A DNA stretch of 64,000 nt. Source: Nannocystaceae bacterium ST9. Lineage in GTDB: Bacteria > Myxococcota_A > Polyangia > Nannocystales > Nannocystaceae. The DNA lies in NCBI GenBank assembly GCA_048320885.1, contig JBLWFJ010000001.1, positions 5,889,697-5,953,696 on the forward strand, read 5' to 3'. Under the pieces are notes generated by a model that saw only the letters and a program-made list of their open reading frames with translations, made no database searches and was not told where the DNA came from. Positions 6,819 to 62,783 of this stretch are shown in pieces (within the stretch, counting starts at the first letter, position 1; each line of letters starts with the position of its first letter). The translations under genes and the position numbers were made by a program.

Positions 6819-8273
6819 GTGACTCGCCTTCGATCCATCGGCCCCGCGTTGCTGACCCTCGGCTTGCTGCCCACCCTCGCGTTGGCGGGCCCACCCGAAG
6901 CGCTGCAGTCGGGAGCCGATCACGATCCCAACATCTATGGCGGCAGCGCGGCCAACTACTGCGGCTGGCCGACCGCGATCTATCTCGACTTCGGGTTCTC
7001 GGCCTGCTCGGGCACGCTGGTCCATCCCGACATCGTGATCACGGCGGCCCACTGCCCCGACACGCCCTCGGGCAAGAACGCGACCGTTCGCTTCGGTGAG
7101 GATTACGGCGGCGGCGAGCGGGCCGTGAGCGCGACCTGCTACTCGAACCCCGGCTACACCGGCTCGGTCGGCGAGACCGACTACGCGTACTGCCGGCTCT
7201 CGCAGTCGGTCACCGACATCCCGATCATCCCGCCGGCGTTCGGCTGCGACACCTCGGCGCTGAGCATCGGTCGCGAGGTCGTGATCGTCGGCTTCGGCGA
7301 GTCCGACAACGGCGGCAGCGGCAGCAAGCGCGAGGTGACCACGACGATCGAGGCGATCGGGCAGACGGCCTTCATCGGCGGCAACGGCAAGGACGCCTGC
7401 TTCGGCGACTCGGGCGGCCCGGTGTTCATCCAGCTCAAGAGCGAGTTCGGGGGCGACGACACCTGGCGGGCGTTCGGCATCACCTCGGGCGGCGCCGACT
7501 GTGGCTCGGGCGGGACCTACTCGCTGATGCACGTGGCGATCCCGTGGATCGAGGATCACTCGGGCGTCGACATCACGCCCTGCCACGACAGCCAGGGCAA
7601 CTGGGCGCCGACGCCCGACTGCGGCGGCATGCCCTACGACCCCGCGGCCGGGCAGGGCTCGTGGAACTCCGGTTGCAGCGACGGGCCGGTCAGCGGCTTC
7701 GGTGGCCTGTGCGGCGAGCCCTTCGGCAGCGGCGACGACATGGACCCGCCGAGCGTCAGCATCGTCGCGCCCGGCAACGGCGACGTGATCGACGTGCCGC
7801 CCGGCGAGACCCAGGCCGAGGTCACCATCGACGTCGAGGCCGACGACGGCGACGGGTTCGGCGTCGCCGAGGTCCGCCTGCTGATCAACGGCAGCGAGTT
7901 CGCGGGCAACACCGACTCGACCGCGCCCTACAGCTGGACGCTGGTGTTCAACCCCGGCGCGTACACGATCGAGGCGATCGCCGAGGACTTCGTCGGCAAC
8001 GAGGGCAGCGCGGATCCGGTCGGGATCGGCGTCGGCCAAGATCCCCCGGACGTGCCCGACGGCGACACGGGCGACGCCGACACGGGAGCCGGCGACACCG
8101 GTGACGGTGCGATGGACGGCGGGGCCGACGAAGTCGGCGAGTCCGGGGGCGACGACGCGGGCATCACCGTGACCGCCGACTGCAATTGCTCGACCGACGA
8201 GCCGCGTCCGATCTCGCTGCTCGCCGGGCTCGGCTTGCTCGGGCTGCTCGGGCTGCGCCGACGCGGCAAGTGA
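6819..8273 (+). CDS. Secreted trypsin-like (S1) serine protease with Ig-like domain and MYXO-CTERM tag
   Basis: Signal peptide, TAAHC (His), GDSGGP (Ser). C-terminus CNCSTDEPRPISLLAGLGLLGLLGLRRRGK matches the MYXO-CTERM sorting signal. Confidence 0.85.
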   Translation: MTRLRSIGPALLTLGLLPTLALAGPPEALQSGADHDPNIYGGSAANYCGWPTAIYLDFGFSACSGTLVHPDIVITAAHCPDTPSGKNATVRFGEDYGGGERAVSATCYSNPGYTGSVGETDYAYCRLSQSVTDIPIIPPAFGCDTSALSIGREVVIVGFGESDNGGSGSKREVTTTIEAIGQTAFIGGNGKDACFGDSGGPVFIQLKSEFGGDDTWRAFGITSGGADCGSGGTYSLMHVAIPWIEDHSGVDITPCHDSQGNWAPTPDCGGMPYDPAAGQGSWNSGCSDGPVSGFGGLCGEPFGSGDDMDPPSVSIVAPGNGDVIDVPPGETQAEVTIDVEADDGDGFGVAEVRLLINGSEFAGNTDSTAPYSWTLVFNPGAYTIEAIAEDFVGNEGSADPVGIGVGQDPPDVPDGDTGDADTGAGDTGDGAMDGGADEVGESGGDDAGITVTADCNCSTDEPRPISLLAGLGLLGLLGLRRRGK

Positions 8274-23974: not shown

Positions 23975-23988
23975 TCGCGTCGAAGTAG

Positions 23989-24071
23989 TCCGCAGGGCAG
24001 GAATCGAACCTGCTCGCGCCGAAGCGCCGTGGGGTTACAGGCCACTGCCCCGCCATGGGGTCATCCTGCGG
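23989..24071 (-). tRNA. Class II tRNA-Tyr (anticodon GTA), atypical
   Basis: Hand-folded as acceptor CCGCAGG/CCTGCGG, D-arm with G18G19, anticodon stem GTGGC/CCCAC, loop CTGTAAC, long variable arm GCGC-TTCG-GCGC, T-arm GCAGG-TTCGATT-CCTGC, discriminator A. Oddities: A at position 8, a C-C pair at 31-39, no encoded CCA. Confidence 0.5.
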
Positions 24072-24075
24072 AAAA

Positions 24076-24149
24076 TCGGGATGGCCGGATTCGAACCGAC
24101 GACCTCCTCACTCCCAGTGAGGCGCGCTCCCAGACTGCGCCACATCCCG
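24076..24149 (-). tRNA. tRNA-Pro (anticodon GGG)
   Basis: CGGGATGTGGCGCAGTCTGGGAGCGCGCCTCACTGGGAGTGAGGAGGTCGTCGGTTCGAATCCGGCCATCCCGA. Canonical cloverleaf, anticodon loop CTGGGAG. Confidence 0.9.
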
Positions 24150-24173
24150 AAACATCGAATTGTCGTGACAGGA

Positions 24174-24247
24174 TCGGGATGGCCGGATTCGAACCGACGA
24201 CCTCCTGTATCCGAAACAGGCGCGCTCCCAGACTGCGCCACATCCCG
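24174..24247 (-). tRNA. tRNA-Pro (anticodon CGG)
   Basis: Identical to the GGG copy except in the anticodon stem-loop (CCTGT-TTCGGAT-ACAGG). Confidence 0.9.
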
Positions 24248-24297
24248 ATTGAATCGTTGTATTGCCGGACAGACGAATGTCGCGAGACATGCGAATG

Positions 24298-24370
24298 TCG
24301 GGACGGCCGGGCTCGAACCGGCGACCTCCTGCTTCCAAGGCAGGCGCGCTACCCACTGCGCCACGTCCCG
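24298..24370 (-). tRNA. tRNA-Pro (anticodon TGG)
   Basis: CGGGACGTGGCGCAGTGGGTAGCGCGCCTGCCTTGGAAGCAGGAGGTCGCCGGTTCGAGCCCGGCCGTCCCGA. Confidence 0.9.
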
Positions 24371-49286: not shown

Positions 49287-50828
49287 ATGCCGAGCCACAC
49301 CACGCAGGTCCTGATCATCGGCGCCGGCCCGACCGGCCTGGCGCTCGCTTCGGAGCTGGTTCGCCACGGCGTGCGGGTGCGCGTCGTCGAGCAGCACGCC
49401 GGGCCCTCGATCCATTCGAAGGCCCTGGTCGTGCAGCCGCGCACGCTCGAGGTGTTCCACGCGATGGGCCTCGCCGACGAGGTGCTGGCCCAGGCCCAGC
49501 AGGTGTTTCGCATCCACGCCCACCTGCAGGGCAAGACCGTGCCGATGATCCAGTTCGGCGAGGTCGACGGGCCCTACTCGCGGCCCTTGATGCTGCGCCA
49601 GAGTCAGACCGAGCGGCTGCTCGCCAAGCGGCTGGCCGAGCAGGGCGTGGCGATCGAGTGGAACTCGGGCCTGACCGCGTTCGGCTCGGGGCCCGAGGGG
49701 GTCGAGGCCACGCTGAGCACCGGCGAGCGCGTGCAGGTCGACTACATGGTCGGCTGCGACGGCGCGCACAGCCTGGTCCGCAAGCAGCTCGGGATCGCGT
49801 TCGAAGGCTCGACCTACACCAACGACTTCATGCAGGTCGACTGCAAGGTTCGCTGGGACTACCCCGACGACACCGGCCAGGGCTTCTTCACCGACGAGGG
49901 CGCGGTGATCGGTCTGCCGCTCGGGCAGGGCAGCTTTCGCTTCATCGTGATCCGCCGCGAGCGACCCGAGCACGCGCCCGACGAGCCGACGCTCGCCGAG
50001 TTCCAGGCGATCGTCGCCGCCGAGGTGCCCGGCGAGGTCGAGCTCCACGATCCCGAGTGGTTGATCCGCTTTCGCCTGCACGAGCGGCTGGCCGAGCACT
50101 ACCGCGTGGGCCGGGTGTTCCTGGCCGGCGACGCGGCCCACATCCACACGCCCGCAGGCGGGCAAGGCATGAACACCGGCATCCAGGACGCGCACAACCT
50201 GGCCTGGAAGCTCGCGCTCGTGCTGGCCGGACACGCGGGCGAGACGATGCTCGACAGCTATCACGCCGAGCGCCACCCGATCGCGGCCGACGTGCTGCGC
50301 TTCACCGATCTCGTGTTTCGAACCGGGCTGGGCAGCAACGTGTTGATCCGCAAGCTGCGGCCGCTCTTGCTACCGCTGGTGTTCGGCAGCGCGTGGGTCA
50401 GCAGCCGGGTCACGCGGACCGTGTCGCAGCTCGAGATCAACGTGCGGCGCAGCCCGATCGTCGAGGACCACCGGTTCTTCCCGACCGGCCCGCACGCGGG
50501 CGACCGAGCTCCGGACGCGAGCTTCCTGCACGAGGGCGGCGAGACCCAGGTGTTCGAGATCCTGCGCGGGACTCGGCACGTGGTGTTCGCCCACTGCGTG
50601 CGCGCCGAGGCGCTGGCGAGCCTGCGGAGCAGCCTGCCCGAAGCGCTGGTCCGAGTGGTGGTCGCCGACGAGGGCGAAGAGCTCGAGGAGCGCTACCACC
50701 TCGGGCACGGGCCGGCGCTCTGGGTCGTGCGACCGGACGGCTACATCGGCTATCGCCAGTCGGGCGACGACCCCGAGCCGCTGCTCGCATGGTTCGCTCG
50801 CATGCTGGCCGCGATCATCCCGACATGA
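49287..50828 (+). CDS. FAD-dependent aromatic-ring hydroxylase-type monooxygenase with C-terminal thioredoxin-like domain
   Basis: VLIIGAGPTGLALA, DG motif, AGDAAHIHTPAGGQGMNTGIQDAHNLAWKL, typical of PHBH-fold (class A) flavoprotein monooxygenases. Confidence 0.85.
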   Translation: MPSHTTQVLIIGAGPTGLALASELVRHGVRVRVVEQHAGPSIHSKALVVQPRTLEVFHAMGLADEVLAQAQQVFRIHAHLQGKTVPMIQFGEVDGPYSRPLMLRQSQTERLLAKRLAEQGVAIEWNSGLTAFGSGPEGVEATLSTGERVQVDYMVGCDGAHSLVRKQLGIAFEGSTYTNDFMQVDCKVRWDYPDDTGQGFFTDEGAVIGLPLGQGSFRFIVIRRERPEHAPDEPTLAEFQAIVAAEVPGEVELHDPEWLIRFRLHERLAEHYRVGRVFLAGDAAHIHTPAGGQGMNTGIQDAHNLAWKLALVLAGHAGETMLDSYHAERHPIAADVLRFTDLVFRTGLGSNVLIRKLRPLLLPLVFGSAWVSSRVTRTVSQLEINVRRSPIVEDHRFFPTGPHAGDRAPDASFLHEGGETQVFEILRGTRHVVFAHCVRAEALASLRSSLPEALVRVVVADEGEELEERYHLGHGPALWVVRPDGYIGYRQSGDDPEPLLAWFARMLAAIIPT

Positions 50829-50851: not shown

Positions 50852-51991
50852 ATGCGCGCCGCTGCACGCACGCTCACCCTCGCGTTCTCGCTCGGACTCG
50901 TGCTCGCCTGCCCCGCGAAGGGCCCGAGCGAGGTCACGACGCCCGAGCCGACCGAGTCGGACGCACCCCAGCGCCCGCACGTCGGCGACCGGGCCCCGGC
51001 GATCTCGCTGGCCACGCTCTCGGGCTCGCGCGTGACCCTGCCGCAGTCCGACGCCGATCGGGCCGCCATCCTGATCTTCGGCTCGTTCAGTTGACCGCCG
51101 TTTCGAATGAAGACTCCTCGGTTCGAGGAGATGGCGATTCGCTGGCGAGACAAGGCCGATTTCTACATCGTGTTCACCCGCGAGGCCCACGCGAAGGCCC
51201 GCGGCGCGGAGCCGCTCGGGCAGGCCGCCGATCAGCTCATGGCCCAGGACGTCGACGGCGACAACGCGGTGAGCCTGGCCGAGTACCAAGGGCCGATGGA
51301 GATGTTCGTGCCCTTCGACATCGACGCCGACGGCGTCGTGCGCTCGCACGAGCTGCTCGCGGCCCGCAAGATCGTGCAGTTCGACGCGATCGAAGATCCG
51401 ACCACCGCCGAGGCCCGACTCGCGCTCGCGCGGCGCTTTCGTGACGAGGTGCCCGGCGACATCCCGGTGCTGATCGACGAGATCGACAATCGCACGTCGG
51501 TGGCCTACGGCGGCGCGCCCAACAGCATGTTCGTGATCGCACCGGACGGGACGATCAGCCACGAGTTCTTCTGGGCCTCGACCCGCGACGCCGAGCGTGC
51601 GCTGGCCGAGCTGTTCGGCGAGGAGCTTCCGCCCGCCGAGCCGCGCGTGGTCGACTGGGCGGCGATCGAGCCCGAGCTCGCGGCCGCCCGCGAGGCCGAT
51701 CGAAATGTGTTGCTGCAATTCACGGCGCCGGGCTGCGGCGCGTGTGCGGCGATGGAGGCCGAGACGCTGGTCGATCCGAGGATCGACGCGCGCCTGGGCG
51801 AGTACCGGCACGTCACGCTCGGGGTCGAGCGCGACGACGCGTGGGGGCTCTTCGAGGCGCTCGAGCTCGACGCCACGCCGGCGTTCGTGATCGTCGATCC
51901 GGCGACTCGTGCGGTGCTCGGCGAGACCCAGGGCTTCACCGACGCCGATCGCTTTCTCGGGTTTCTCGACGAGTCGGCGGAGGCTGAGTGA
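50852..51991 (+). CDS. Predicted selenoprotein: iodothyronine-deiodinase-like domain (in-frame TGA = Sec at 51092..51094) fused to thioredoxin-like CGAC domain; lipoprotein
   Basis: Reading through TGA joins ORFs 50852..51094 and 51107..51991 in one frame to give ...ILIFGSFS-U-PPFRMKTPRFEEMAIRWRDKADFYIVFTREAH. This matches deiodinase active-site blocks FGSCT-U-PPF and DFLIIYIEEAH with identical spacing. C-terminus has QFTAPGCGACAAMEAE (thioredoxin CxxC). Confidence 0.6.
51095..51135 (+). promoter_or_regulatory. Candidate bacterial SECIS hairpin downstream of the in-frame UGA
   Basis: CTCCTCG-GTT-CGAGGAG perfect 7-bp stem (51114..51130) starting 19 nt after the UGA, with a G/U-rich apical loop. 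Confidence 0.35.
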
Positions 51992-51994
51992 TCG

Positions 51995-52711
51995 TCACCC
52001 GGCTTCGCGGCGATCCTCGCGGGCGTCGGCCACCAGCCCGACGAGGATCGGCACGATCGTGACGGTGAGCGCGATCGGGATCGCGATCATCGGCGCGGCG
52101 GTCAGCTGCGCCCAGGCATCTTGGCCGGCCGCGACCCGATCCTTCAACAGCAGCGAGGCGACCAGCTCGCTCAGCCCCCAGCCGGCTGCGACTCCGACCA
52201 CGCTGGCGATCGCGACCCCGACGATCCCCGGCAGCGCCCGCAAGGGCGTGGTCAGGGCCCGAAACACGGGGATCAGGATCGACGTCGCCGCCAGGTAGTT
52301 CACGAAGAACATCCCGAACGTGAACATGCCGAACCACTGCGCCCGCTGGGCGAGCGACCACTCGGGCGGCGGGGTCGGATCGATCGGCCCGATCTCGACG
52401 TCCCAGGTCTGCAACGCGACGATCGCCAGGTAGGTGAACGCGAAGGTGAACGCGGCCTTGACCGGCCCCGACTTGATCCGCATCCACAGCGGCAGCTCCG
52501 CGAGCGTCGGGCCGTAGTCGAGCCGGCCCTCGAAGTAGCCCTCGACGAAGAGCATCGCCACGCTCGCGAGCAGCACGCTGCTGGCGACGAGCGGCGGGAG
52601 CTGGCGAGCGACCTCGTCGAAGCGCGAGGCGATCGCGAGCGCGTGCAGGAGCGCCGCGAGCACGAAGAAGGGCGCGAGGTGGCGCGGATCGAGGGGGGCG
52701 CGAGCGGCCAT
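51995..52711 (-). CDS. Hypothetical integral membrane protein
   Basis: About 6 TM helices. No family recognised. Confidence 0.45.
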   Translation of the reverse strand: MAARAPLDPRHLAPFFVLAALLHALAIASRFDEVARQLPPLVASSVLLASVAMLFVEGYFEGRLDYGPTLAELPLWMRIKSGPVKAAFTFAFTYLAIVALQTWDVEIGPIDPTPPPEWSLAQRAQWFGMFTFGMFFVNYLAATSILIPVFRALTTPLRALPGIVGVAIASVVGVAAGWGLSELVASLLLKDRVAAGQDAWAQLTAAPMIAIPIALTVTIVPILVGLVADAREDRREAG

Positions 52712-52742: not shown

Positions 52743-54326
52743 TCAGCCCTGTGGGTTCGGGTTGATCTTCGCCAGCCGCAGCCCGCCCGGGTACGCGTAC
52801 GAGGTCACGTCGGTATACCCGACTTGGATCACTCCGAACGCGTCGTCGCTCTCGGCCACGTGGGCGCCCTGGCTGATCGACCAGTCGGCGACCTCGAACT
52901 CGCCGACCGCGTAGTAGCCGGTCACCACCGCGCCGTCGACGAGCACGTCGGCGCCGCCTTGCGGCCTCGTGATCTGCACGTAGTTCTCGTCGTAGCCGGT
53001 CCCGGTCACGAACACGTAGCGCGGCAGGAACTGCTCGGTCGGGACCATCTGATACGACGCCGGATCGCCGGTCCCGGCCCCGCCGTCCTGGCCCTCGAGA
53101 TACTGGACCGGCAAGAAGGGGCCGTCGGCGGTCGCGATGAAGCTCTGCTGGGTCGAGAACTCGATGAACTCGCCGCGATCGAGCAGGGCCGGCGTGCCGG
53201 GCTGGGGCGGGTCGGTGGTGATCGTGACCGCGTCGTCGCCCGAGTAGATCCGCCACCAGTAGTCCTCGTTGCCGCGCTGCGGGGCGTGTGCGCCGACGTA
53301 CTGCTCGCCCCAGTACTCGAGCGGCAGCATCAGCTCTTCGATGTGATCGCAGTAGGTGACGTTGGCCGGGATGTTGACGCAGGGCACCGCGCCGACCACC
53401 CAGGCCGGCTCGCTGGTCGAGATGATCGTGCCCGAGACGTCGGAGCTCGCGGTCACCTGCAGCATGTCGTAGGCACCGATCACGACCATGCCGGTCGCGA
53501 GCGCGCCGACGGCCGGCACCCCGGAGCCGGCCGCGGTCGCGTTGCGAGGCTGCCACTCGACGGTGGTGTTCTCTTCGATCCCGACCACGTTGAAGTACGA
53601 GTAGTCGTTGCCGATGTTGGTGCTCCAGGCCGCGACGATGTAGTTCTGGCCGAGCGCGTGATCGGGGATCAGCATCGACGAGTCGTTGTGCGCGACGGCG
53701 GAGATCGGCGAGTGCTGGTAGGCGACGACCGGGCGATCGCTCTCGACCCGATGCGCGCCGCCCTGCCGCAAGACCGAGACGTCGCCGGGCTCGCCCGGCA
53801 TGTTCAGCACGAACTCGTGGGTGCCTCCGGGCGGGATCATGATCGGGCCGCCGACCGCCTGCTCGCCGCCGCCGGGAGGGCCGAAGTAGAGCTGGAGCGT
53901 GGCCGGGTTCTCGTCGGAGACGTTGCCGACGACCAGCGAGGTCGGCTCCTCCTGGAAGTTCTGCATCTTGTTGGCGTGGAACGAGCAGCCGACCGTGCTC
54001 TCGATCATCAGGGCCTGCGCGCAGGTCTCGGGGATCGTCGGCAGGACCGGGCCACCGCCGGCGTCGGGCAAGATCGGCAGGTCGAACTTGATGCCGTCGT
54101 CGGCGTCGGTCGAGTCGGCGTCGGCGTCGGTCGAGTCGGAGCTCGGATCGTCGGAGCTCGACTCGCTCGCGTCGGAGCTCGACTCGCCGGCGCTGCTGCT
54201 GGTCTCGATCCCGTCGCCGTCGCCGTCGCCGACCTCGTCGGTGGTGTTCGATCCTTCGCCGGCTCGACAGGCGAGCATGGTGATCAGGGGCAAGAGCGTG
54301 GGCGTGAGCGAAGCCAAGCGCGACAT
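52743..54326 (-). CDS. Secreted lipoprotein with acidic S/D-rich linker and beta-rich (IgGFc-binding-N-terminal-like) domain
   Basis: Lipobox LACRAG. 527 aa. Many N-x-T/S and aromatic-rich beta segments. Confidence 0.55.
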   Translation of the reverse strand: MSRLASLTPTLLPLITMLACRAGEGSNTTDEVGDGDGDGIETSSSAGESSSDASESSSDDPSSDSTDADADSTDADDGIKFDLPILPDAGGGPVLPTIPETCAQALMIESTVGCSFHANKMQNFQEEPTSLVVGNVSDENPATLQLYFGPPGGGEQAVGGPIMIPPGGTHEFVLNMPGEPGDVSVLRQGGAHRVESDRPVVAYQHSPISAVAHNDSSMLIPDHALGQNYIVAAWSTNIGNDYSYFNVVGIEENTTVEWQPRNATAAGSGVPAVGALATGMVVIGAYDMLQVTASSDVSGTIISTSEPAWVVGAVPCVNIPANVTYCDHIEELMLPLEYWGEQYVGAHAPQRGNEDYWWRIYSGDDAVTITTDPPQPGTPALLDRGEFIEFSTQQSFIATADGPFLPVQYLEGQDGGAGTGDPASYQMVPTEQFLPRYVFVTGTGYDENYVQITRPQGGADVLVDGAVVTGYYAVGEFEVADWSISQGAHVAESDDAFGVIQVGYTDVTSYAYPGGLRLAKINPNPQG

Positions 54327-54366
54327 CGCGCGATGGTATCTCGATCGCGGCCCGCTCAGAACCCGT

Positions 54367-55353
54367 TCAGAACCCGTTCAACGTGTCGACGACGGCGACG
54401 AGGTCGCCGCGATCGTAGAAGTCGACCGCGACGAAGTTGGGCGGGTGATCCCAGAACTCCCAGCACTCCTGGGCGCGCGCGAGCAGGAAGTCGTACTGGT
54501 TGACGATGTCGGCGCCCTCGGGCGAGGGCAGCCCGAGCTGGTTGGCGACCCAGTGGTTGAGCAAGAACAGGTCGTTGTCGGGCGAGCCGCGGTTGAGCTC
54601 GCAAGACATGTCGGCCGGATCCATCTCGGCGTAGGCCGTGTCCCAGGCCAGATCCCAGACGTGCTGGTGCCAGGCCGGCGGCGGCCCGCCCTGCTCGACC
54701 GTGACCAGCAGGCGCGTGTCGGCCTCGATCAGCTCGCCGAGCGTCGGCCAGGGCTCGCCGACCGGGTGCGCGTAGGTCAGCGCCTCGGCGCCGGTCGCCG
54801 CGTAGTCGAGCGCGAGGTCGGCCGCGTCGACGGCGTCCTGGTAGATGATCGCGATCACCTCGCCGGGGTTGGCGACCAGGAAGTCGGTGATCGATTGCAG
54901 CGTGTCGAGATGCGAGATCGAGCCGAGGTTGCAGGGCCCGTGGCAGAGCACGATCGACTGGTCCTCGGCGTAGTAGGTGTCGATCAGCAGCAGGCGCACG
55001 CCCTCGGCCAGCTGGGTCGGGATCGCGTGAGCCTGGTTGGTGTTGAACTGGCTGAACCCGTCTTCGCTGCTCGCGTGGCTGTTGTGGGTGCCGGCGAACA
55101 CGACCTCGTCGAGCGGGCGATCGCAGAGCTCGGCGTGGCCGTTGCAGACCAGCGCGGGCTCGCCGGTCTCGGTCGACTCGCCGGTGTCGGTCGACTCGTC
55201 GGTCTCGCCGCTCGCCGACTCGCTCGCGTCGGACTCGTCGGTGCCCGAGCCCTCGCTCGTGGTCTCGCTGCCGATCTCGTCGTCGGCCGGCTGCTCGTCG
55301 GCGCAGGCGAGCGCGGTCAGGACCAGCAGGGCAGGGGCGGCGCGCGAGCTCAT
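54367..55353 (-). CDS. PI-PLC X-domain-like phosphodiesterase lipoprotein
   Basis: Lipobox ALACAD. VFAGTHNSHAS and LLIDTYY blocks resemble the PLC-like phosphodiesterase TIM barrel. Confidence 0.5.
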   Translation of the reverse strand: MSSRAAPALLVLTALACADEQPADDEIGSETTSEGSGTDESDASESASGETDESTDTGESTETGEPALVCNGHAELCDRPLDEVVFAGTHNSHASSEDGFSQFNTNQAHAIPTQLAEGVRLLLIDTYYAEDQSIVLCHGPCNLGSISHLDTLQSITDFLVANPGEVIAIIYQDAVDAADLALDYAATGAEALTYAHPVGEPWPTLGELIEADTRLLVTVEQGGPPPAWHQHVWDLAWDTAYAEMDPADMSCELNRGSPDNDLFLLNHWVANQLGLPSPEGADIVNQYDFLLARAQECWEFWDHPPNFVAVDFYDRGDLVAVVDTLNGF

Positions 55354-55383
55354 GCCGACCAGGCTATCAGGTTCAGGCAGGGC

Positions 55384-58296
55384 TCAGGCTCGGCGAGCGC
55401 GGCGACGGACGAGCCCGAGCAGGCCGATCAGCGCGAGGCCGAGTACTCCGGATCCACGCGGCGAGTCGGGCTCGCTGGCGCAGCCGCAGCCGCGCCCGTC
55501 GGGCACCCACAGGGTCGCGTCGCCGGTCTCGCCCGACTCGTCGCCGGTGTCGGTTCCGGTCTCGGTCCCGGTCTCTTCATCGCCCTCGACGATGCAGGCC
55601 GCGCTGCATCCGTCGCCGTCTTGCTCGTTGCCGTCGTCGCACTGCTCGCCGGCCTCGATCAGCGCGTTGCCACACTCGCCCGCGAGCGCGCCGTGCCCGA
55701 CGATGCAGACCTCGTCGATGTTCCAGCCGCCGAACTCGAGCCCGAAGTCCGAGCTCAGCGTGAAGCCGATCTGGACCATGCCGTCGACGACCTGCTCGCC
55801 GATCTCGACGTCGTGAAAGCGCCACTCGCGATCGCGGTGATGCAGGGTCGAGAATTCGTCGAAGCTGGCGACGTTCGTCCAGACCGGGGTGCCGTTGGCG
55901 GTGATCCGGGCTTGATCGAAGAACCCGTCCTCGACGTTGAGCCAGCGCCGGTACTGCAGGCGGACGTGCTGCCAGTCGCCGACGGCGACCGGATCGGCGA
56001 CCAGCGTCGCGCTCGTGCCGGGCGAGTAGGTGCCCGGCTGGGCGAGCGTGTTGCCGGCCACGGCGAGGCCCGCGAAGGGCCCGTCGGGGTCGCCGCTCGC
56101 TCCGACCGGGTTGCCGACCTGGAAGCCGTCGATGGTCCAGCCGCCGGTCTCGCCCTCGCTCTCGAAGCCCGAGCACCAGATCAGGGTCGGCTCGCCGATG
56201 AAGTGCTCGTACCAGGGATCGGCCGGATTGTCGGGCCGCACGCCGACCGTGCCGTTGCCCCAGTCGAGGTCGACTTGGTACTGCACGACCGAGAACTCGG
56301 CCTGCGCGGGGATGGTCGCGTGCCAGCGTCCCTGCGCGTCGACCTGCATGGCCAGCGTCTGGGCCGGGTTGTCGGGCGCGCCCACAGGCGCTCGCACTCG
56401 CCAGCGCACGCTCGGCTGCACGCTGCTCGGGCAGTCGGGGAACGCGTCGCCGACCTCGAGCTCGAGCGCGAGCGCGAAGTCGGGCAGCACCTGCGTGTTC
56501 AGCTGAGTGACGCCGAGCGGCGGCTCGAACAGCCCGTGAGCCGCGAACGCGTCGTTGATCACGCAGGCGTCGGGCGTGCCGTTGGCGAGGTTGCCGTCGT
56601 CGTCGTTGGCCGCGAGCGCCTCGAGGTACATCGAGGGGATGTCGACCGCCCGGCGAATGCCCTCGAACCAGATGTGATCGGTCTTGGCGATCCCGAGCGC
56701 GCCCTGCTCGGCGCGCAGGGCCTCGCGGAGATCCCAGAGCGTGCCGCCGATGATCCGACCCTCGTCGTGGACCTCGCCCTTGTCTTCGGGCCAGTGCCAT
56801 TCGAAGCCCTCGGGATCGAGATCGCGGATCGGCGAGGCGTCGAAGAAGAACCCGATGCCCATCTTCGGATCGTCGACGATCGTCGCGGCCAGGTAGTCGG
56901 CGATGCCCTCGCTGAGCGCTCCGTCGAACACGCCGACGCCGGGGATCAGCGACTGCGTGTGCACCGAGTGGCCGAACTCGTGATAGACGACGTCGGCGAT
57001 CCGGCCCGAGTTCTGACAGCCACCGCCCGACAAGAAGAAGTTGAGCGAGTCGCCGTCGCTGAACGCGTTGCAGACGTCGGCGATGTTGGTCGTGACCTGC
57101 AATTGCTGATCGAGGTAGTCGAAGTCCGGGGCGATCGAGCGCACGCGATCCTTGACCAGCAGCGCGTGCACGTAGGTGTTGAGCTGGGCGTCGAGCTGCT
57201 CGTCTTCGCCGTCGCCCCACAGCACGCTGCTGGCCGGGCTGGCCGTGGTGATCAGCGCGGCGTCGGGGCCCGCGTCGTTCGAAACCGTCACCAGCTGGCC
57301 GTGCGCGCCGAACTCGGCCGCGCTGTTGGCCGCCGCGACCGTGAAGCCGCCGGCCTGATCGGTGAACTGCGGCACGCCGGCGATCTCGACCGACACGCCG
57401 CGGGCCGGAAAGCCGACCCGTGGACCGACCGTGCTGCGCTGCTGGACCTCGAACTGCAGGTTGGCCCACATCAAGGTCGAGCGACGCGCGACCGGGTCGC
57501 CGCTGGCCGCGTCGACGAACACCTGCCAGCGACCGATCGGGCTGGCCAGCGACACCTCGATCATGCGGACCTCGATCAGCTCGATCGCTCCGCTCGCGTG
57601 GATCAGCGGGAGGATCTGGATCGGGCTTGCGATGTCGGCCGAGGTCTGCTCGACGCGGCCACTAGCGAAGTCGTCGGCGATCCAGGTGCGCGCGCCCGCG
57701 ATCGCTCGCTCGGCGTCGACGCTGGCGCTGCGGGCCGCGAGCGTCGGGTGCGGGACCAGCTGCGATCGAACCAGGCTCAGGCGATCGTGGGCGAAGCGAA
57801 GGCTGATCTGGCCGCCGATCACCGGCTTGCCCTGGAAGGTCTGCGCGAACCCGAGGGTCCGGCCCTGGCGATCCTCGACGTCGGCGACCAGCACCAGGTC
57901 GGCGGGATCGATCCCGGGCGCGAGCAACTCGGCGTGCCGCTCGAACAGCTCGCGAGCGAAGCGCTGGGCGTGCTCCGACGAAGCGCTCGCGTGCGCGACG
58001 ATCAGGCCGTGGGGGATCAGCGTGTCGAGGGCTCCGGTGTCGCGATCGAAGCGAGCCCAGACCGGACCGAGCTCCGCCTCGAGCCGCGCGAGCGCCCGCG
58101 ATCGCAGGCCGGTCGGCGGGGCGTCCCACGAGCCGGTTCGAGCGCTCCGCAGCACTCGCGGGGCCTCGAGCTCGAGCGTGTCTCGGCCACGCAGGTGGTC
58201 GGGGGGCTGGATGGCCTCGGCCTCGAGCGATGGGATCAGAACCAACGCCGCAGCAACGAACCCGAGCGCGACAGGAGAACGGTAGCTTCCGAACAT
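55384..58296 (-). CDS. Secreted thermolysin-like (M4-type HExxH...ExxxD) zinc metalloprotease with MYXO-CTERM tag
   Basis: VVYHEFGHSV and GALSEGIADYLA. C-terminus GCGCASEPDSPRGSGVLGLALIGLLGLVRRRARRA. Start MFGSYRSPVALGFVAAALVLIP at complement of 58294..58296. Confidence 0.8.
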   Translation of the reverse strand: MFGSYRSPVALGFVAAALVLIPSLEAEAIQPPDHLRGRDTLELEAPRVLRSARTGSWDAPPTGLRSRALARLEAELGPVWARFDRDTGALDTLIPHGLIVAHASASSEHAQRFARELFERHAELLAPGIDPADLVLVADVEDRQGRTLGFAQTFQGKPVIGGQISLRFAHDRLSLVRSQLVPHPTLAARSASVDAERAIAGARTWIADDFASGRVEQTSADIASPIQILPLIHASGAIELIEVRMIEVSLASPIGRWQVFVDAASGDPVARRSTLMWANLQFEVQQRSTVGPRVGFPARGVSVEIAGVPQFTDQAGGFTVAAANSAAEFGAHGQLVTVSNDAGPDAALITTASPASSVLWGDGEDEQLDAQLNTYVHALLVKDRVRSIAPDFDYLDQQLQVTTNIADVCNAFSDGDSLNFFLSGGGCQNSGRIADVVYHEFGHSVHTQSLIPGVGVFDGALSEGIADYLAATIVDDPKMGIGFFFDASPIRDLDPEGFEWHWPEDKGEVHDEGRIIGGTLWDLREALRAEQGALGIAKTDHIWFEGIRRAVDIPSMYLEALAANDDDGNLANGTPDACVINDAFAAHGLFEPPLGVTQLNTQVLPDFALALELEVGDAFPDCPSSVQPSVRWRVRAPVGAPDNPAQTLAMQVDAQGRWHATIPAQAEFSVVQYQVDLDWGNGTVGVRPDNPADPWYEHFIGEPTLIWCSGFESEGETGGWTIDGFQVGNPVGASGDPDGPFAGLAVAGNTLAQPGTYSPGTSATLVADPVAVGDWQHVRLQYRRWLNVEDGFFDQARITANGTPVWTNVASFDEFSTLHHRDREWRFHDVEIGEQVVDGMVQIGFTLSSDFGLEFGGWNIDEVCIVGHGALAGECGNALIEAGEQCDDGNEQDGDGCSAACIVEGDEETGTETGTDTGDESGETGDATLWVPDGRGCGCASEPDSPRGSGVLGLALIGLLGLVRRRARRA

Positions 58297-58428
58297 GGTA
58301 AAGCTGGCAAAAGTGTACCGACGTTCGCGGAGTTTGCCCAGGCTTCCATGTCCATCCGCGCGGGATCTTTTGCCTTCCAAGCCTTCGTGCCGCGCTTGCC
58401 TTCGATCGATCACTCGATCGGGCGAGGT

Positions 58429-59175: not shown

Positions 59176-59892
59176 TCAACCTGCAACGCGGGGGAACATC
59201 AGCTCGATCTCCAGTCGCACGCGATCTTCGGCCAGCTCCGCGGCCATGCCCTCGTAGTCGATGCCGAACGCCTTGGCGCTGATGTCGAGGACCGCGGAGC
59301 CGACGACCTGAGTGGGCCCGACCTCGAGCGTGGCCGGGAAGTCCAGCGTACGCTCGACCCCGTGCAGGTGCATGGTCCCGCGCACGCGATGGGTGCCTTC
59401 GTCGTCGTCGGCCATCGGCTCGATGCTCTGCGCGGTGAAGGTGGCCGTAGGGAATTTGTCCACGTCGAAGAAGTCGGGGCCCTTGAGGTGCTCGGTCAGC
59501 CCGTGCTGATCGGCCGCGACCGAGCCGGTTCGGACGACGATCTCGAGCGCGACCGGCTTGCCGTCTTGCAACGTGAGGTTCGCGGTGAAGCGAGCGAAGT
59601 GCCCGATGTGGCCGATCGTCGCGCGCGCGACCGCGAAGCCGACCGAGCTGTGATCCCGGTCGGCGCTCAGCAATTCCTGACCGGGCAGCGGCTCCGCAGG
59701 AGGCGCCTGCTCGACGATCTCGCCCTCGTCGGTGGTCTCGCTCGCGGGCCCAGACCCGCCGGTGGTCGTGGTCGAAGTCGAGGTCGGGAGATCGGCGGGC
59801 TCGGACGCGGTCGTGACCTCGCTCGGCCCTTTGGGACAGGCGCTCAGGACCACGACCAGCATCGACGAGAGCAGGGAGCTGCGCAGCGGCAT
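59176..59892 (-). CDS. YceI-like family lipoprotein
   Basis: DRDHSSVGFAVARATIGHIGHFARF...HLHGVERTLDFPATLEV matches the YceI polyisoprenoid-binding fold. Confidence 0.75.
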   Translation of the reverse strand: MPLRSSLLSSMLVVVLSACPKGPSEVTTASEPADLPTSTSTTTTGGSGPASETTDEGEIVEQAPPAEPLPGQELLSADRDHSSVGFAVARATIGHIGHFARFTANLTLQDGKPVALEIVVRTGSVAADQHGLTEHLKGPDFFDVDKFPTATFTAQSIEPMADDDEGTHRVRGTMHLHGVERTLDFPATLEVGPTQVVGSAVLDISAKAFGIDYEGMAAELAEDRVRLEIELMFPRVAG

Positions 59893-60284: not shown

Positions 60285-62678
60285 TCAATCGACGTAGCGG
60301 TTGAGATCGAAGCGGCCCGCGTGCAGCGGATCGCCGGCGTCGAACTGCTGCTGAAACCAGTCGTAGGTCGCCCAGAAGTTCGGGTCGTCGCGCTCGATCC
60401 CGAACTCGGCCAGCGCGACGCGAGCCGCGGGTCCGCCGTCGAAGTCGGTCAACATCGCGAAGAACTCGGGCAGGCGATCGGCCTCGACGTCGAAGAAGTA
60501 GTTGGGATACGAGCCGAGGCTGCCGGGCTGGACGTGCAGGGTGTCCTTGTTCGGGTCGAGCCGCTTGGTCTCGAGCAGCAGCGAGTTCACGTTGTCGTGC
60601 CAGCGATTGACGATCAGCGTGTACACGCGATCGTGGCCGGCGAGGCCGCGGACGCGCAGGTAGATCAGGTTGACGTCGGTGTCGGTGACGTGGCGGATGA
60701 ACCCGGTCCCGGCCGCGTTCAGAGCCCGCAGCCCGGCGCGCAGATCGGCTTCGTCGTCGAATTGCTCGGGCATCGCCGGCGCGGCCTGGTCGGCCCGGCG
60801 ATAGTTGAGCGGGTCGAACTCGATGGCCAGCGCGGGGTCGAAGTGGGCGTCGACCAGGCGCTCGAGCAGCTCGCGCTTGGGGTCGTCGGTGTGAAACTCG
60901 ATCTCGGTCGCGCGATCGGTCAGCACGCCGCGATGATCGATGTGCTCGATCGCCCGCACGCCCTGATACCACTCGCGCAGGATCGGCAGGCGCTCGTCCG
61001 GAGGCAGGAAGTAGAGAAAATTCAATTCGGCGTCGGCGCGCAGATAGTCCATGTAGCGGCGCACGCTGATCTGGTGGCTGACGTTGCCGAACACGTCGAA
61101 GCCGGCGACCAGCGCGTAGTAGACCCGTTCGAATTGCGCATAGTCGCATAGCCACACGGTCCGCGGCAGATCGCCGAGCGCCCCGGCGTGGACCGACGCG
61201 CTGTCGAAGTGGCGATAGATGGTCAGCAGCGGGGTGTCGCCCTCGCGCTCGCCCGCCCAGATCCCGTCGATGTCGAGCCCGCCGGGGACCCGCTCGTCGT
61301 AGAGCGCGACCTTGGCCCGATAGAAGTCGGCGTAGCGCTTGCGATAGGCGACGCCGAGCACCCGGACGATCCGGCCGTCGCTGCCCCGCTCGATCGGCAT
61401 GCGCAGGTTGTCGGCCTGGCCGAGCAGGAACTCGGGGTCGCTCAGGGTCGGATCGGCGTCGGGATCCATGAAGGTCACCCAGAAGTGCTCGTGGATCACG
61501 TTGAGCGCGACCTGGCCCTTGCAGACCGGGCCTTGAATGAAGGTCTGCATGATGTAATGGGAGTGATCGAGCATGAATTGATAGCGGACGCGCGGCGGGA
61601 TCTGGGCATAGACGACGAAGGGGTTGGCCTCGGTCCGCGGATCGACCTCGACCCAATGCGGGGGCTCGAGCCAGGGCGTGGCGATGAATTGTTCGGTCAG
61701 CCGGGCGAGCGCGGCGTCGTCGAGCGCGACGACCATGTGGGTCTTGTGGACGATCGTCGAATGAATCTTGCGCAGGCGATACCAGAAATCGCCGTCGATC
61801 GAATCATAGGGGCGCAGGGTCGGGATCACGACGATCGGCTGGCCGGGCGGCGTCGACGAGCGGACCAGTTCGAAGAACTCGGGCGCCCCGTCGGCGGCCG
61901 AGGTCGCGAAGCTCAGGTGGGCCAAGAACAGGTGCTCGTAGAGATAGCGAGCCGTCATCGCGTGCTTGGCATCGCCATGGTTGAAGAACGCCTCCCAGGT
62001 CGCAATCGCCTGCGCGGCCGCGGACGAGGGCTCGGTCCGGGCGCGCTGCTCGTCGGCGCTCGGGCCCTCGGCGCCGCGGGCCAGCCAGGTCGCGATCAGG
62101 TCGTACTCGGCTTGCGAGAGCGCCGGAAATCCGAACGGCATCGCGCGATTGGGGTGTCGGCTCAGGTAGCGGCCGAGCTCGTCGGGATCTTCGGCGCAGG
62201 TCGAATCGCGCGACTCGGCCTGGTACTCGCCGCGGATCTCGGGTGAGCGCCGCTTGCCGGCCAGCACGTGCAGCATCAGCGAGTCGTTCGTGCCCGGCGG
62301 AGCCCGGCTCTCGGTCACCGAATGAAACGACTTGCCTCGCCATTGTTCGGTCGAGGTGGCGTCGGTGAAGAGTCGAGTCGGGGCCTGGTCGCGCAGTCGG
62401 GTCCCGTCGTAGACCCGCAGCTTGCTGGCGCCTCGATCGACGCCTTCGAAGGAGCCGAGCTGGAGCTGACAGGGCGCGTTGTAACAGGAGTGACAGACGA
62501 CACAGCGCTTGGCGAGGATCGGCTCGACGTCGGCGACATAGCCGACCGGCCGGTCGAGTTCGACGACATGCACGGGCGGTGGGGCTCGAACACAACCAAT
62601 CAGCAGCAGCGCGAGAGCGATCGCGTGCCAGGCCCGGGCGTGAAGCGGGCGAGCACACGCATCCTCTGCTTTCGACAT
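60285..62678 (-). CDS. cti: Fatty acid cis/trans isomerase (Cti family, heme CXXCH)
   Basis: Signal peptide. CVVCHSC heme-binding motif near the N-terminus. 797 aa with blocks typical of Cti (...WLARGAEGP..., ...FLYFLPPDERL...). Confidence 0.7.
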   Translation of the reverse strand: MSKAEDACARPLHARAWHAIALALLLIGCVRAPPPVHVVELDRPVGYVADVEPILAKRCVVCHSCYNAPCQLQLGSFEGVDRGASKLRVYDGTRLRDQAPTRLFTDATSTEQWRGKSFHSVTESRAPPGTNDSLMLHVLAGKRRSPEIRGEYQAESRDSTCAEDPDELGRYLSRHPNRAMPFGFPALSQAEYDLIATWLARGAEGPSADEQRARTEPSSAAAQAIATWEAFFNHGDAKHAMTARYLYEHLFLAHLSFATSAADGAPEFFELVRSSTPPGQPIVVIPTLRPYDSIDGDFWYRLRKIHSTIVHKTHMVVALDDAALARLTEQFIATPWLEPPHWVEVDPRTEANPFVVYAQIPPRVRYQFMLDHSHYIMQTFIQGPVCKGQVALNVIHEHFWVTFMDPDADPTLSDPEFLLGQADNLRMPIERGSDGRIVRVLGVAYRKRYADFYRAKVALYDERVPGGLDIDGIWAGEREGDTPLLTIYRHFDSASVHAGALGDLPRTVWLCDYAQFERVYYALVAGFDVFGNVSHQISVRRYMDYLRADAELNFLYFLPPDERLPILREWYQGVRAIEHIDHRGVLTDRATEIEFHTDDPKRELLERLVDAHFDPALAIEFDPLNYRRADQAAPAMPEQFDDEADLRAGLRALNAAGTGFIRHVTDTDVNLIYLRVRGLAGHDRVYTLIVNRWHDNVNSLLLETKRLDPNKDTLHVQPGSLGSYPNYFFDVEADRLPEFFAMLTDFDGGPAARVALAEFGIERDDPNFWATYDWFQQQFDAGDPLHAGRFDLNRYVD

Positions 62679-62783
62679 CGTCGGCCAGAGTGCGGTCCGA
62701 TGGGCCGAGTCCGCAAGTCATGCGTATTCGGCAGTTTTTGCCGGCGGTGTCGTTCGAGCGGCGTGATAAGTCCTTCGGACCGC

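Follow-up and report, generated by a model that had tools for sequence, protein, structure and literature searches.

Two adjoining annotated genes of Nannocystaceae bacterium ST9 are almost certainly one gene for an exported deiodinase-like enzyme with a UGA-encoded active-site selenocysteine

A 64,000-nucleotide stretch of the genome of Nannocystaceae bacterium ST9 (assembly GCA_048320885.1, contig JBLWFJ010000001.1, positions 5,889,697 to 5,953,696 of the forward strand; hereafter the window) carries at 50852-51991 two open reading frames (ORFs) that occupy the same frame of the + strand and lie only 12 nt apart, raising the question of whether the TGA between them ends one gene or encodes a residue within a longer one. 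An earlier note, made from the DNA letters alone, had proposed the latter: a deiodinase-like selenoprotein fused to a thioredoxin domain and split by an in-frame UGA. Comparison with relatives indicates that the two annotated genes almost certainly form a single gene, the product of which is an exported enzyme with a UGA-encoded active-site selenocysteine (Sec). Very probably this gene, spanning 50852-51991, encodes an exported and probably lipid-anchored selenoenzyme of three modules, with Sec inserted at the UGA via a selenocysteine insertion sequence (SECIS) at 51114-51130.

From the ATG at 50852 to the TGA at 51989-51991, the frame comprises 380 codons, with the TGA at 51092-51094 as its sole internal stop, in the context ILIFGSFS-TGA-PPFRMKTP. 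Reading this codon as Sec81 yields a complete coding sequence (CDS; 50852-51991, +) of 379 residues that ends at the true stop, TGA 51989-51991. The split into ORFs of 80 aa (50852-51094) and 294 aa (51107-51991), in one frame and separated by 12 nt, is directly visible in the sequence as the note had described. Moreover, GenBank lists two CDSs here, MFV8753775.1 ('hypothetical protein', 80 aa) and MFV8753776.1 ('thioredoxin family protein', 294 aa), and this separate annotation of the two pieces confirms the prediction that standard gene callers would miss the gene. GAGGTGA is found 12 nt ahead of the ATG at 50852, and no Shine-Dalgarno sequence was seen ahead of the ATG at 51107.

Among 5.8 billion proteins searched, 60 relatives were identified. 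About 47 of these are 277-304 aa long, each starting at a Met four codons past the TGA position; ten span the full length (351-402 aa) and have Cys at precisely the position of the window's TGA, so that the Cys-containing orthologues which the note had proposed to look for do exist. The closest full-length orthologue (P0002, at locus L026) is such a Cys form, 64% identical over 98% of the query and carrying LIFGSFTCPPFRMKTP. The Met that opens the short relatives is equally invariant in the uninterrupted Cys forms; therefore the Met encoded at 51107 is an internal residue that gene callers mistook for a start. About 20 clusters at 50% identity that have the full architecture, about half of them Sec forms, reach E <= 1e-30 among 1.84 billion representatives, and members of the subfamily come, where a source is named, from Myxococcota.

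Among 26 loci for which DNA was fetched, the homologous codon is TGA in 16 and TGT or TGC in seven. Two of the TGA loci (L019 and L020) are identical in sequence, leaving 15 distinct fetched TGA sequences, or 16 with that of the window. Thus a UGA at 17 loci, window included, is aligned to a Cys codon at seven, with conserved flanks, and the protein is conserved on both sides of the shared TGA. The ST9 gene is 75-79% identical to its nearest Sec-form relatives; the closest of all (L001) was the sole locus obtained by scanning genome contigs with the single protein. Wherever gene calls accompany the loci, a short upstream ORF (67-97 aa) stops 12 nt before the called start, every time. Furthermore, the codons between TGA and ATG (P-P-F-R) vary almost only at third positions (Shannon entropy of 0.00, 0.08 and 1.32 at codon positions 1, 2 and 3, respectively, among the 16 distinct TGA sequences), and the 12 nt are therefore translated in frame.

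The note had placed a 7-bp stem (CTCCTCG/CGAGGAG) 19 nt past the TGA as a candidate SECIS, and this hairpin is present at 51114-51130 (+), its arms at 51114-51120 and 51124-51130 (CUCCUCG/CGAGGAG) closing an apical loop GUU at 51121-51123. The hairpin satisfies every constraint of the published bacterial SECIS (bSECIS) model (PMC13188914), in agreement with the fold that the note had anticipated: the apical loop is 3 nt (3-9 nt in the model), the upper stem is 7 bp (4-16 bp), the loop starts with GUU (G[G|U] in the first positions), 26 nt lie between the UGA and the loop (16-37 nt), and the minimum free energy (MFE) of the 17-nt hairpin is -9.3 kcal/mol (<= -7.5 kcal/mol). An Rfam scan returned no model matching a bacterial SECIS and only noise at E > 3. 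A lower helix (CGCCGU/AUGGCG) suggested by single-sequence folding was dropped, as RNAalifold did not support it, and a 'terminator' on the minus strand at 51130-51114 proved to be the same palindrome read in reverse.

Across the relatives the hairpin accompanies the TGA. The peptide encoded across it (T-P-R-F-E-E) is conserved in Sec and Cys forms alike; its Pro is encoded by CCU in all 16 distinct TGA sequences and its Thr by ACU in 12 of the 16, codons that make up, respectively, 4.4% of the Pro codons and 3.0% of the Thr codons in the genes of the window. The Cys forms have CCG in five of seven cases (P = 6e-4, phylogeny not corrected for), and none of the seven kept the helix. In terms of folding, 16 TGA loci including the window form 6-7 of the 7 stem pairs (-7.8 to -11.4 kcal/mol) and the divergent TGA locus L008 forms a 5-bp core (-6.3 kcal/mol over 17 nt, or -8.0 with two extra outer pairs), while the seven Cys loci form 4-5 of the 7 pairs with an MFE of only -1.5 to -4.6 kcal/mol. 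RNAalifold, applied to an alignment of the first 15 TGA sequences (alignment A2, built before L008 was recognized as a TGA form), predicted exactly the helix at 51114-51130 and nothing else; 97% of the alignment cells are paired on this structure, and sliding the 3′ arm by one to three columns lowers this to 40-56%. One stem pair occurs as U-A (12 sequences), G-C (2) or C-G (1), and it ties the third position of a Thr/Val codon to the second position of a Glu/Ala/Gly codon, a coupling that goes beyond selection at the protein level. The conservation in homologues on which the note's SECIS depended was thus found, with covariation, only in the TGA forms, and the hairpin is degraded in every Cys form. 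Judged by this pattern, selection at the RNA level maintains the hairpin at 51114-51130 as a SECIS.

Remnants of the SECIS codons were observed in two Cys forms that lie near the Sec clade: at L004:4600-4660 (+), ACT CCT CAG TTC GAA GAG is found with the helix broken, and at L026 (gene at 6989-8197) CCT is kept, again with the helix broken. From their sequences, both look like recent Sec-to-Cys conversions with SECIS decay.

What kind of enzyme the reunited frame encodes was apparent from its modules. Its N-terminus, MRAAARTLTLAFSLGLVLAC, reads as a signal peptide (50852-50911, +) with a lipobox-like end, LVLA-C20, in which Cys20 is predicted to be lipid modified. Full-length orthologues and the upstream fragments of Sec forms alike keep a hydrophobic leader followed by [AG]-C, and this suggests a lipoprotein signal, as the note had proposed. 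Past the signal, the deiodinase-like domain (of the peroxiredoxin/thioredoxin fold) comes in two halves. The first (about aa 41-114; 50972-51193, +) holds the active-site motif SxxU (FGSFS-U81-PPF) and E111-A112-H113, three residues that are invariant among 23 family members; the second (aa 185-250; 51404-51601, +) aligns to Dio3 (aa 185-237) and Dio2. The Pfam profile T4_deiodinase (PF00837) matches across the TGA in two stretches, the first at aa 37-114 and the second in the second half, with a total of 59.4 bits (cut-off 27), and the orthologues score 52-66 bits. In a phmmer search of the Protein Data Bank (PDB), the sole significant matches of this domain were mouse Dio3 (4tr3, E = 2e-8) and mouse Dio2 (9h48, E = 2.1e-8), and the only other sequence match, thioredoxin 2lst, was to the C-terminal domain. 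Alignment to 4tr3 and 9h48 places the signature S-x-x-U/C-P-P-F with E-A-H 32 residues on. The 'identical spacing' to the vertebrate active site claimed by the note therefore stands (U81 to H113 spans 32 residues, as does Sec170 to His202 in Dio3), except that the gap it gave between PPFR and DFYIVF, 26 aa, is in fact 17 aa.

The fold was assessed on a predicted model of P0002, the Cys orthologue introduced above (pLDDT 86, pTM 0.79). The top Foldseek matches of this model in the PDB are again 9h48 (E = 1.5e-8, TM on target 0.72) and 4tr3 (E = 2.3e-8, TM 0.67), with ResA, DsbE and TlpA-like proteins ranking after Dio2 and Dio3; as modelled, the domain would share the catalytic-core fold of the deiodinases. 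Family assignment by profile, by sequence and by fold thus converge on the deiodinases, as the note had it. Several other profiles came close or fell short: the peroxiredoxin profiles AhpC-TSA (PF00578; 24.5 bits, cut-off 26) and Redoxin (PF08534; 20.6 bits, cut-off 26.6) are below their thresholds, the NCBIfam model NF038285 (deiodinase_rel) scores 105.5 bits against a cut-off of 250 through profile positions 175-249 plus a second stretch in the second half of the domain, and the NCBIfam ResA, StoA and MauD models are far under theirs. As for the motif P-x-x-x-T/S-x-x-C, the S-x-x-U part is present and residue -7 is Leu, not Pro; the active site is more like that of a deiodinase than that of a peroxiredoxin.

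About 70 residues separate the two deiodinase-like halves, and between the EAH strand and the second half they carry a predicted pair of Ca2+-binding EF-hand loops (51248-51352, +), DVDGDNAVSLAE at aa 133-144 and DIDADGVVRSHE at aa 156-167. Both loops match D-x-D-x-D-[GN]-x-V-x-x-x-E, with D133, D137, E144, D156, D160 and E167 invariant or nearly so. On the window protein itself Pfam EF-hand_7 gives only a weak match (12.8 bits against a cut-off of 30; E = 0.16), and EF-hand_1, EF-hand_5, EF-hand_6 and EF-hand_7 match its homologues; in the P0002 model the region is confidently predicted, with helices flanking both loops. The third module is a thioredoxin-like domain of the DsbD-gamma type (about aa 266-374; 51647-51973, +) with C295-G-A-C298 encoded at 51734-51745. 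It matches Pfam Thioredoxin_7 (PF13899; 33.5 bits) and Thioredoxin_2 (29.9 bits), both above the cut-off of 27, its Foldseek matches are the DsbD C-terminal structures 2fwe, 2fwf and 1vrs, and C295 and C298 are invariant across the family. Of the architecture that the note had set out, the lipoprotein signal and the C-terminal CGAC thioredoxin domain were accordingly recovered; the predicted EF-hand insertion had been overlooked. Besides the lipobox Cys, the protein contains Sec81, C295 and C298 as its only Cys or Sec residues.

A catalytic cycle can be proposed from this layout. With the UGA at 51092-51094 decoded as Sec, the in-frame hairpin at 51114-51130 recruiting SelB with Sec-tRNA(Sec), the Sec81 selenolate would attack an electrophilic substrate in the cell envelope. 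Candidates include peroxides, sulfenic acids, disulfides and halogenated aromatics attacked at their halogen, and His113 and Glu111 may serve as an acid/base relay in the manner of Dio3. Selenium thereby oxidized to Se-OH or Se-X would form a selenenyl-sulfide with one Cys of the CxxC, which the second Cys would resolve to a disulfide, and a membrane electron donor of the DsbD/CcdA type would re-reduce that disulfide. Since no further Cys is present in the mature protein, only the fused CxxC could supply an internal resolving thiol, and we infer that the thioredoxin domain acts as the resolving reductant. The same three kinds of module (EF-hand, deiodinase-like and Thioredoxin_7) are found again, differently ordered, in an unrelated set of metagenomic proteins (P0081, P0084 and P0085), which argues that the modules work together; at the level of sequence, this recurring association of EF-hands suggests Ca2+ control of an envelope redox enzyme.

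On the same gene model, a different function can be argued, in which the enzyme is a true reductive dehalogenase (a deiodinase or debrominase acting on halogenated phenolics) and not a peroxidase or a thiol-disulfide oxidoreductase. The active site speaks for it, in that the deiodinase-type S-x-x-U-P-P-F and E-A-H are present with the identical 32-residue spacing, and so do the structural matches, with Dio2 and Dio3 ahead of ResA, TlpA and peroxiredoxins, and the sub-threshold scores of AhpC-TSA and Redoxin. Genomic and ecological hints point the same way: a FAD-dependent aromatic-ring hydroxylase gene lies directly upstream in ST9 and L001 and 3.8 kb upstream in L018, a distant FAD monooxygenase (26% identical) is encoded about 0.8 kb upstream in L021, the Nannocystaceae include marine genera, and halogenated phenolics are common in marine habitats. 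However, no monooxygenase is linked to the gene at most loci, and the positions near Dio3 His219 and Arg275, which we take to be hormone-contacting residues of that enzyme, are not conserved as His or Arg (about P183 and about F240, respectively, mapped by hand); the protein is therefore deiodinase-like and not a thyroid-hormone deiodinase. In addition, only a generic redox role was proposed by those who first described the bacterial family in 2005 (PMC1088965). On balance, a true dehalogenase is unlikely, and reductive dehalogenation of some halogenated aromatic other than thyroid hormone is no more probable. That this small Myxococcota family is a Ca2+-dependent, self-recycling reductive dehalogenase of the envelope, a bacterial counterpart to the thyroid-hormone deiodinases that removes iodine or bromine from halogenated phenolics, its selenol abstracting the halogen and the fused thioredoxin domain regenerating the selenol, would be a little less probable. 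The remaining weight falls on a peroxide, sulfenate or disulfide reductase role.

Readings that reject the gene model fare much worse. If the TGA were a genuine stop, the locus would yield two products, an 80-aa lipopeptide and a cytosolic 294-aa protein of the thioredoxin family, and the gene callers of NCBI and JGI do annotate all TGA-form loci in this way; an ATG is also present 12 nt past the TGA. Yet the split would fall mid-fold at the active-site residue and leave a downstream piece without signal peptide, first three strands or nucleophile; its supposed start has no Shine-Dalgarno sequence and is the very Met that stays invariant in the uninterrupted Cys forms; the spacer evolves as coding sequence; and the rare codons that maintain the hairpin occur only together with the TGA. 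Two separate products are therefore very improbable.

Equally improbable is a pseudogene or sequencing error in ST9, with a Cys codon mutated to TGA or Sec decoding lost. A single-base change does suffice to turn TGT or TGC into TGA, but the same TGA is present in 16 independent assemblies from different samples and sequencing projects, and the error or true stop in orthologues that the note had named among the findings that would refute its reading was not seen, as 16 other loci share the codon. Nor does the ST9 gene look like a relic: it contains no further stop or frameshift, it keeps the 75-79% identity to its closest Sec-form relatives, and it retains a perfect 7-bp SECIS through the rare ACU CCU, while decay of the SECIS is evident in the Cys-converted lineages L004 and L026 and not in ST9.

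That a near-cognate tRNA reads the UGA as a standard amino acid (Trp or Cys), with the hairpin as a generic stimulator, is scarcely credible: read-through stimulated by downstream structure does exist in bacteria and viruses, but the residues aligned to this position are only Cys among homologues and Sec among the vertebrate deiodinases, the hairpin fits a SelB-type bSECIS (G-U opening a small apical loop, 26-nt spacing), the Nannocystaceae are recorded as selenoprotein users, and the gene's own terminator is also TGA, so that UGA is not generally reassigned.

The reading of 50852-51991 as one selenoprotein gene has its own weak points, and they should be set against it. First, selA, selB, selD and tRNA-Sec were not found within the 64-kb window. 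Second, the window's hairpin by itself is no better than chance in sequence of 70% GC (z = -0.72), and its significance therefore comes only from the comparison of orthologues, in which a compensatory change affects one base pair and four of the seven pairs never vary. Third, two family members, P0071 and P0077, have Ser at the Sec/Cys position (FGSYSSTMLRMK and FGSYTSPSFRMK, respectively) yet keep the C-terminal CxxC, and thus the thioredoxin domain can persist without the nucleophile; to judge from their sequences, they may be catalytically dead or repurposed variants. Finally, the gene neighbourhood is not conserved beyond close relatives and forms no conserved operon, so that genomic context provides no clue to function.

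Sec decoding in ST9 would follow from the integrity of the gene and the conservation of its SECIS. Indirect support comes from two relatives. A supplementary table of Peng et al. (2016) counts six selenoprotein genes in Plesiocystis pacifica SIR-1, of the same family, and that count was the only item found in the literature on Nannocystaceae selenoproteins. Furthermore, at L011:6177-6272 (-), about 4 kb upstream of a Cys-form family member, lies a tRNA-Sec gene (Rfam RF01852, 70.8 bits; anticodon TCA by ARAGORN); its neighbours encode aldo-keto reductases, an MFS transporter, a flavodoxin and a LysR regulator, with no sel genes among them. This organism can thus decode Sec yet has Cys in its deiodinase-like enzyme. 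A scan of the whole window for other in-frame TGAs returned only an ordinary gene boundary at 59176, with a filter insensitive enough to leave the selenoprotein gene itself unflagged.

How far is such a protein new? Bacterial deiodinase-like proteins with Sec or Cys and a bacterial SECIS were first described in 2005 from the Sargasso Sea metagenome (Zhang, Fomenko and Gladyshev; PMC1088965), and the kind is therefore already known. A 2026 review (PMC13188914) lists the family under PF00837 as single-Sec proteins with the motif UxxC, and Peng et al. (2016) report deiodinase-like selenoproteins from two sequenced organisms. The window protein shares with that family its bacterial origin, an in-frame UGA with a SECIS in the coding region, the coexistence of Sec and Cys forms, a PF00837 score above threshold and a presumed redox role. 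It differs in having U-P-P-F with no Cys at +3, as in the vertebrate enzymes, instead of UxxC, and in adding the EF-hand insertion (about 50 extra residues), the DsbD-gamma-like fusion and the lipoprotein signal.

With the vertebrate deiodinases Dio1-3 (4TR3/4TR4 for mouse Dio3, 9H48 for mouse Dio2), its best PDB matches in sequence and fold, the protein shares FGS-x-[ST]-U-PPF, 18 residues and then DF...EAH, with Ser at -3 and 32 residues from Sec to His, and the second half of the fold aligns as well (VPG..VLxDxxDNxxSxAYG). In contrast, the SECIS of Dio1-3 is a eukaryotic element of the 3′-untranslated region and that of the window a bacterial hairpin in the coding region; an N-terminal transmembrane helix in Dio1-3 has a lipoprotein signal in its place; F79 and D203 take the positions of Dio3 Cys168 and Cys239; Dio3 has 18 residues at the insertion site, where the predicted EF-hand pair replaces a short deiodinase-specific insertion beside the substrate cleft; and the fused thioredoxin domain is absent from Dio1-3. 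Among envelope proteins, TlpA, ResA and DsbE superpose on the N-terminal domain as modelled (TM on target 0.8-0.86) and resemble it in predicted location, but they have CxxC where the window protein has a single selenol (UPPF). DsbD gamma likewise superposes on the modelled C-terminal domain (2fwe, 1vrs) and shares the Thioredoxin_7 match, except that no DsbD membrane domain accompanies it in the window protein. Closest in composition are the metagenomic P0081, P0084 and P0085, in each of which a single polypeptide unites the three modules, together with the active site GSYTCPVFR...YGREAH and, C-terminally, a CxxC; they differ in that the EF-hands are N-terminal to an uninterrupted deiodinase-like domain, in being only about 32-35% identical, and in that the examples seen are Cys forms. 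P0085 also carries an extra alpha/beta-hydrolase (Peptidase_S9/DLH) domain. What appears to be new is the combination, in one lipoprotein, of a vertebrate-type UPPF, a predicted EF-hand pair that interrupts the fold and a DsbD-gamma-like fusion, and no description of such a subfamily was found.

In the window, the gene is preceded by one for the FAD-dependent aromatic-ring hydroxylase (49287-50828, +; FAD_binding_3, 300 bits, plus Rng_hyd_C), whose stop lies 23 nt before the selenoprotein start; the two may thus be co-transcribed. The hydroxylase gene directly adjoins only in ST9 and its closest relative L001, with an orthologue 3.8 kb upstream in L018, and the selenoprotein gene behaves as a self-contained unit. 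Downstream, a convergent gene for a membrane protein, at 51995-52711 (-), was considered as a partner of the CcdA/DsbD type and ruled out; the protein has no Cys. It is followed by genes at 52743-54377 (-) and 54367-58428 (-) that belong to a set of one secreted-looking protein with an IgGFc_binding domain and then two large ORFs (338 and 1014 aa) without a Pfam match; the first two of the set are syntenic with L018. Elsewhere in the window, four tRNA genes are clustered at 23988-24370 (-), namely Tyr-GTA, Pro-GGG, Pro-CGG and Pro-TGG, of which Rfam confirms the three tRNA-Pro at gathering score and the tRNA-Tyr was found by ARAGORN only. A fatty acid cis/trans isomerase (CTI; PF06934, 773 bits) is encoded at 60285-62717 (-); CTI is known mainly from Pseudomonas and Vibrio and may be unusual in a myxobacterium.

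For ST9 and its relatives, the immediate consequence is a corrected annotation: MFV8753775.1 and MFV8753776.1, two mis-annotated CDSs of a complete genome, become one, and the same split affects each of the 16 other fetched loci with a TGA and, by implication, the approximately 47 short database homologues. The locus is a correctable annotation error with comparative evidence and possibly a useful model enzyme, not a new principle. It also offers an unusually clean natural case of SECIS selection on synonymous codons, with the rare ACU/CCU kept only together with the UGA and decaying after conversion to Cys. In active-site sequence few bacterial proteins are closer to the vertebrate deiodinases, and this one has a presumptive reductant fused on. 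How oxidized selenium is regenerated in animal deiodinases in vivo is still debated, and the built-in CxxC partner together with the natural Cys variants would make the family a tractable system for the selenium regeneration step. Should the dehalogenase reading be true, deiodinase chemistry would be older than animals, and the enzyme would give access, in a soluble bacterial model, to the regeneration step that is mechanistically unresolved in the deiodinases.

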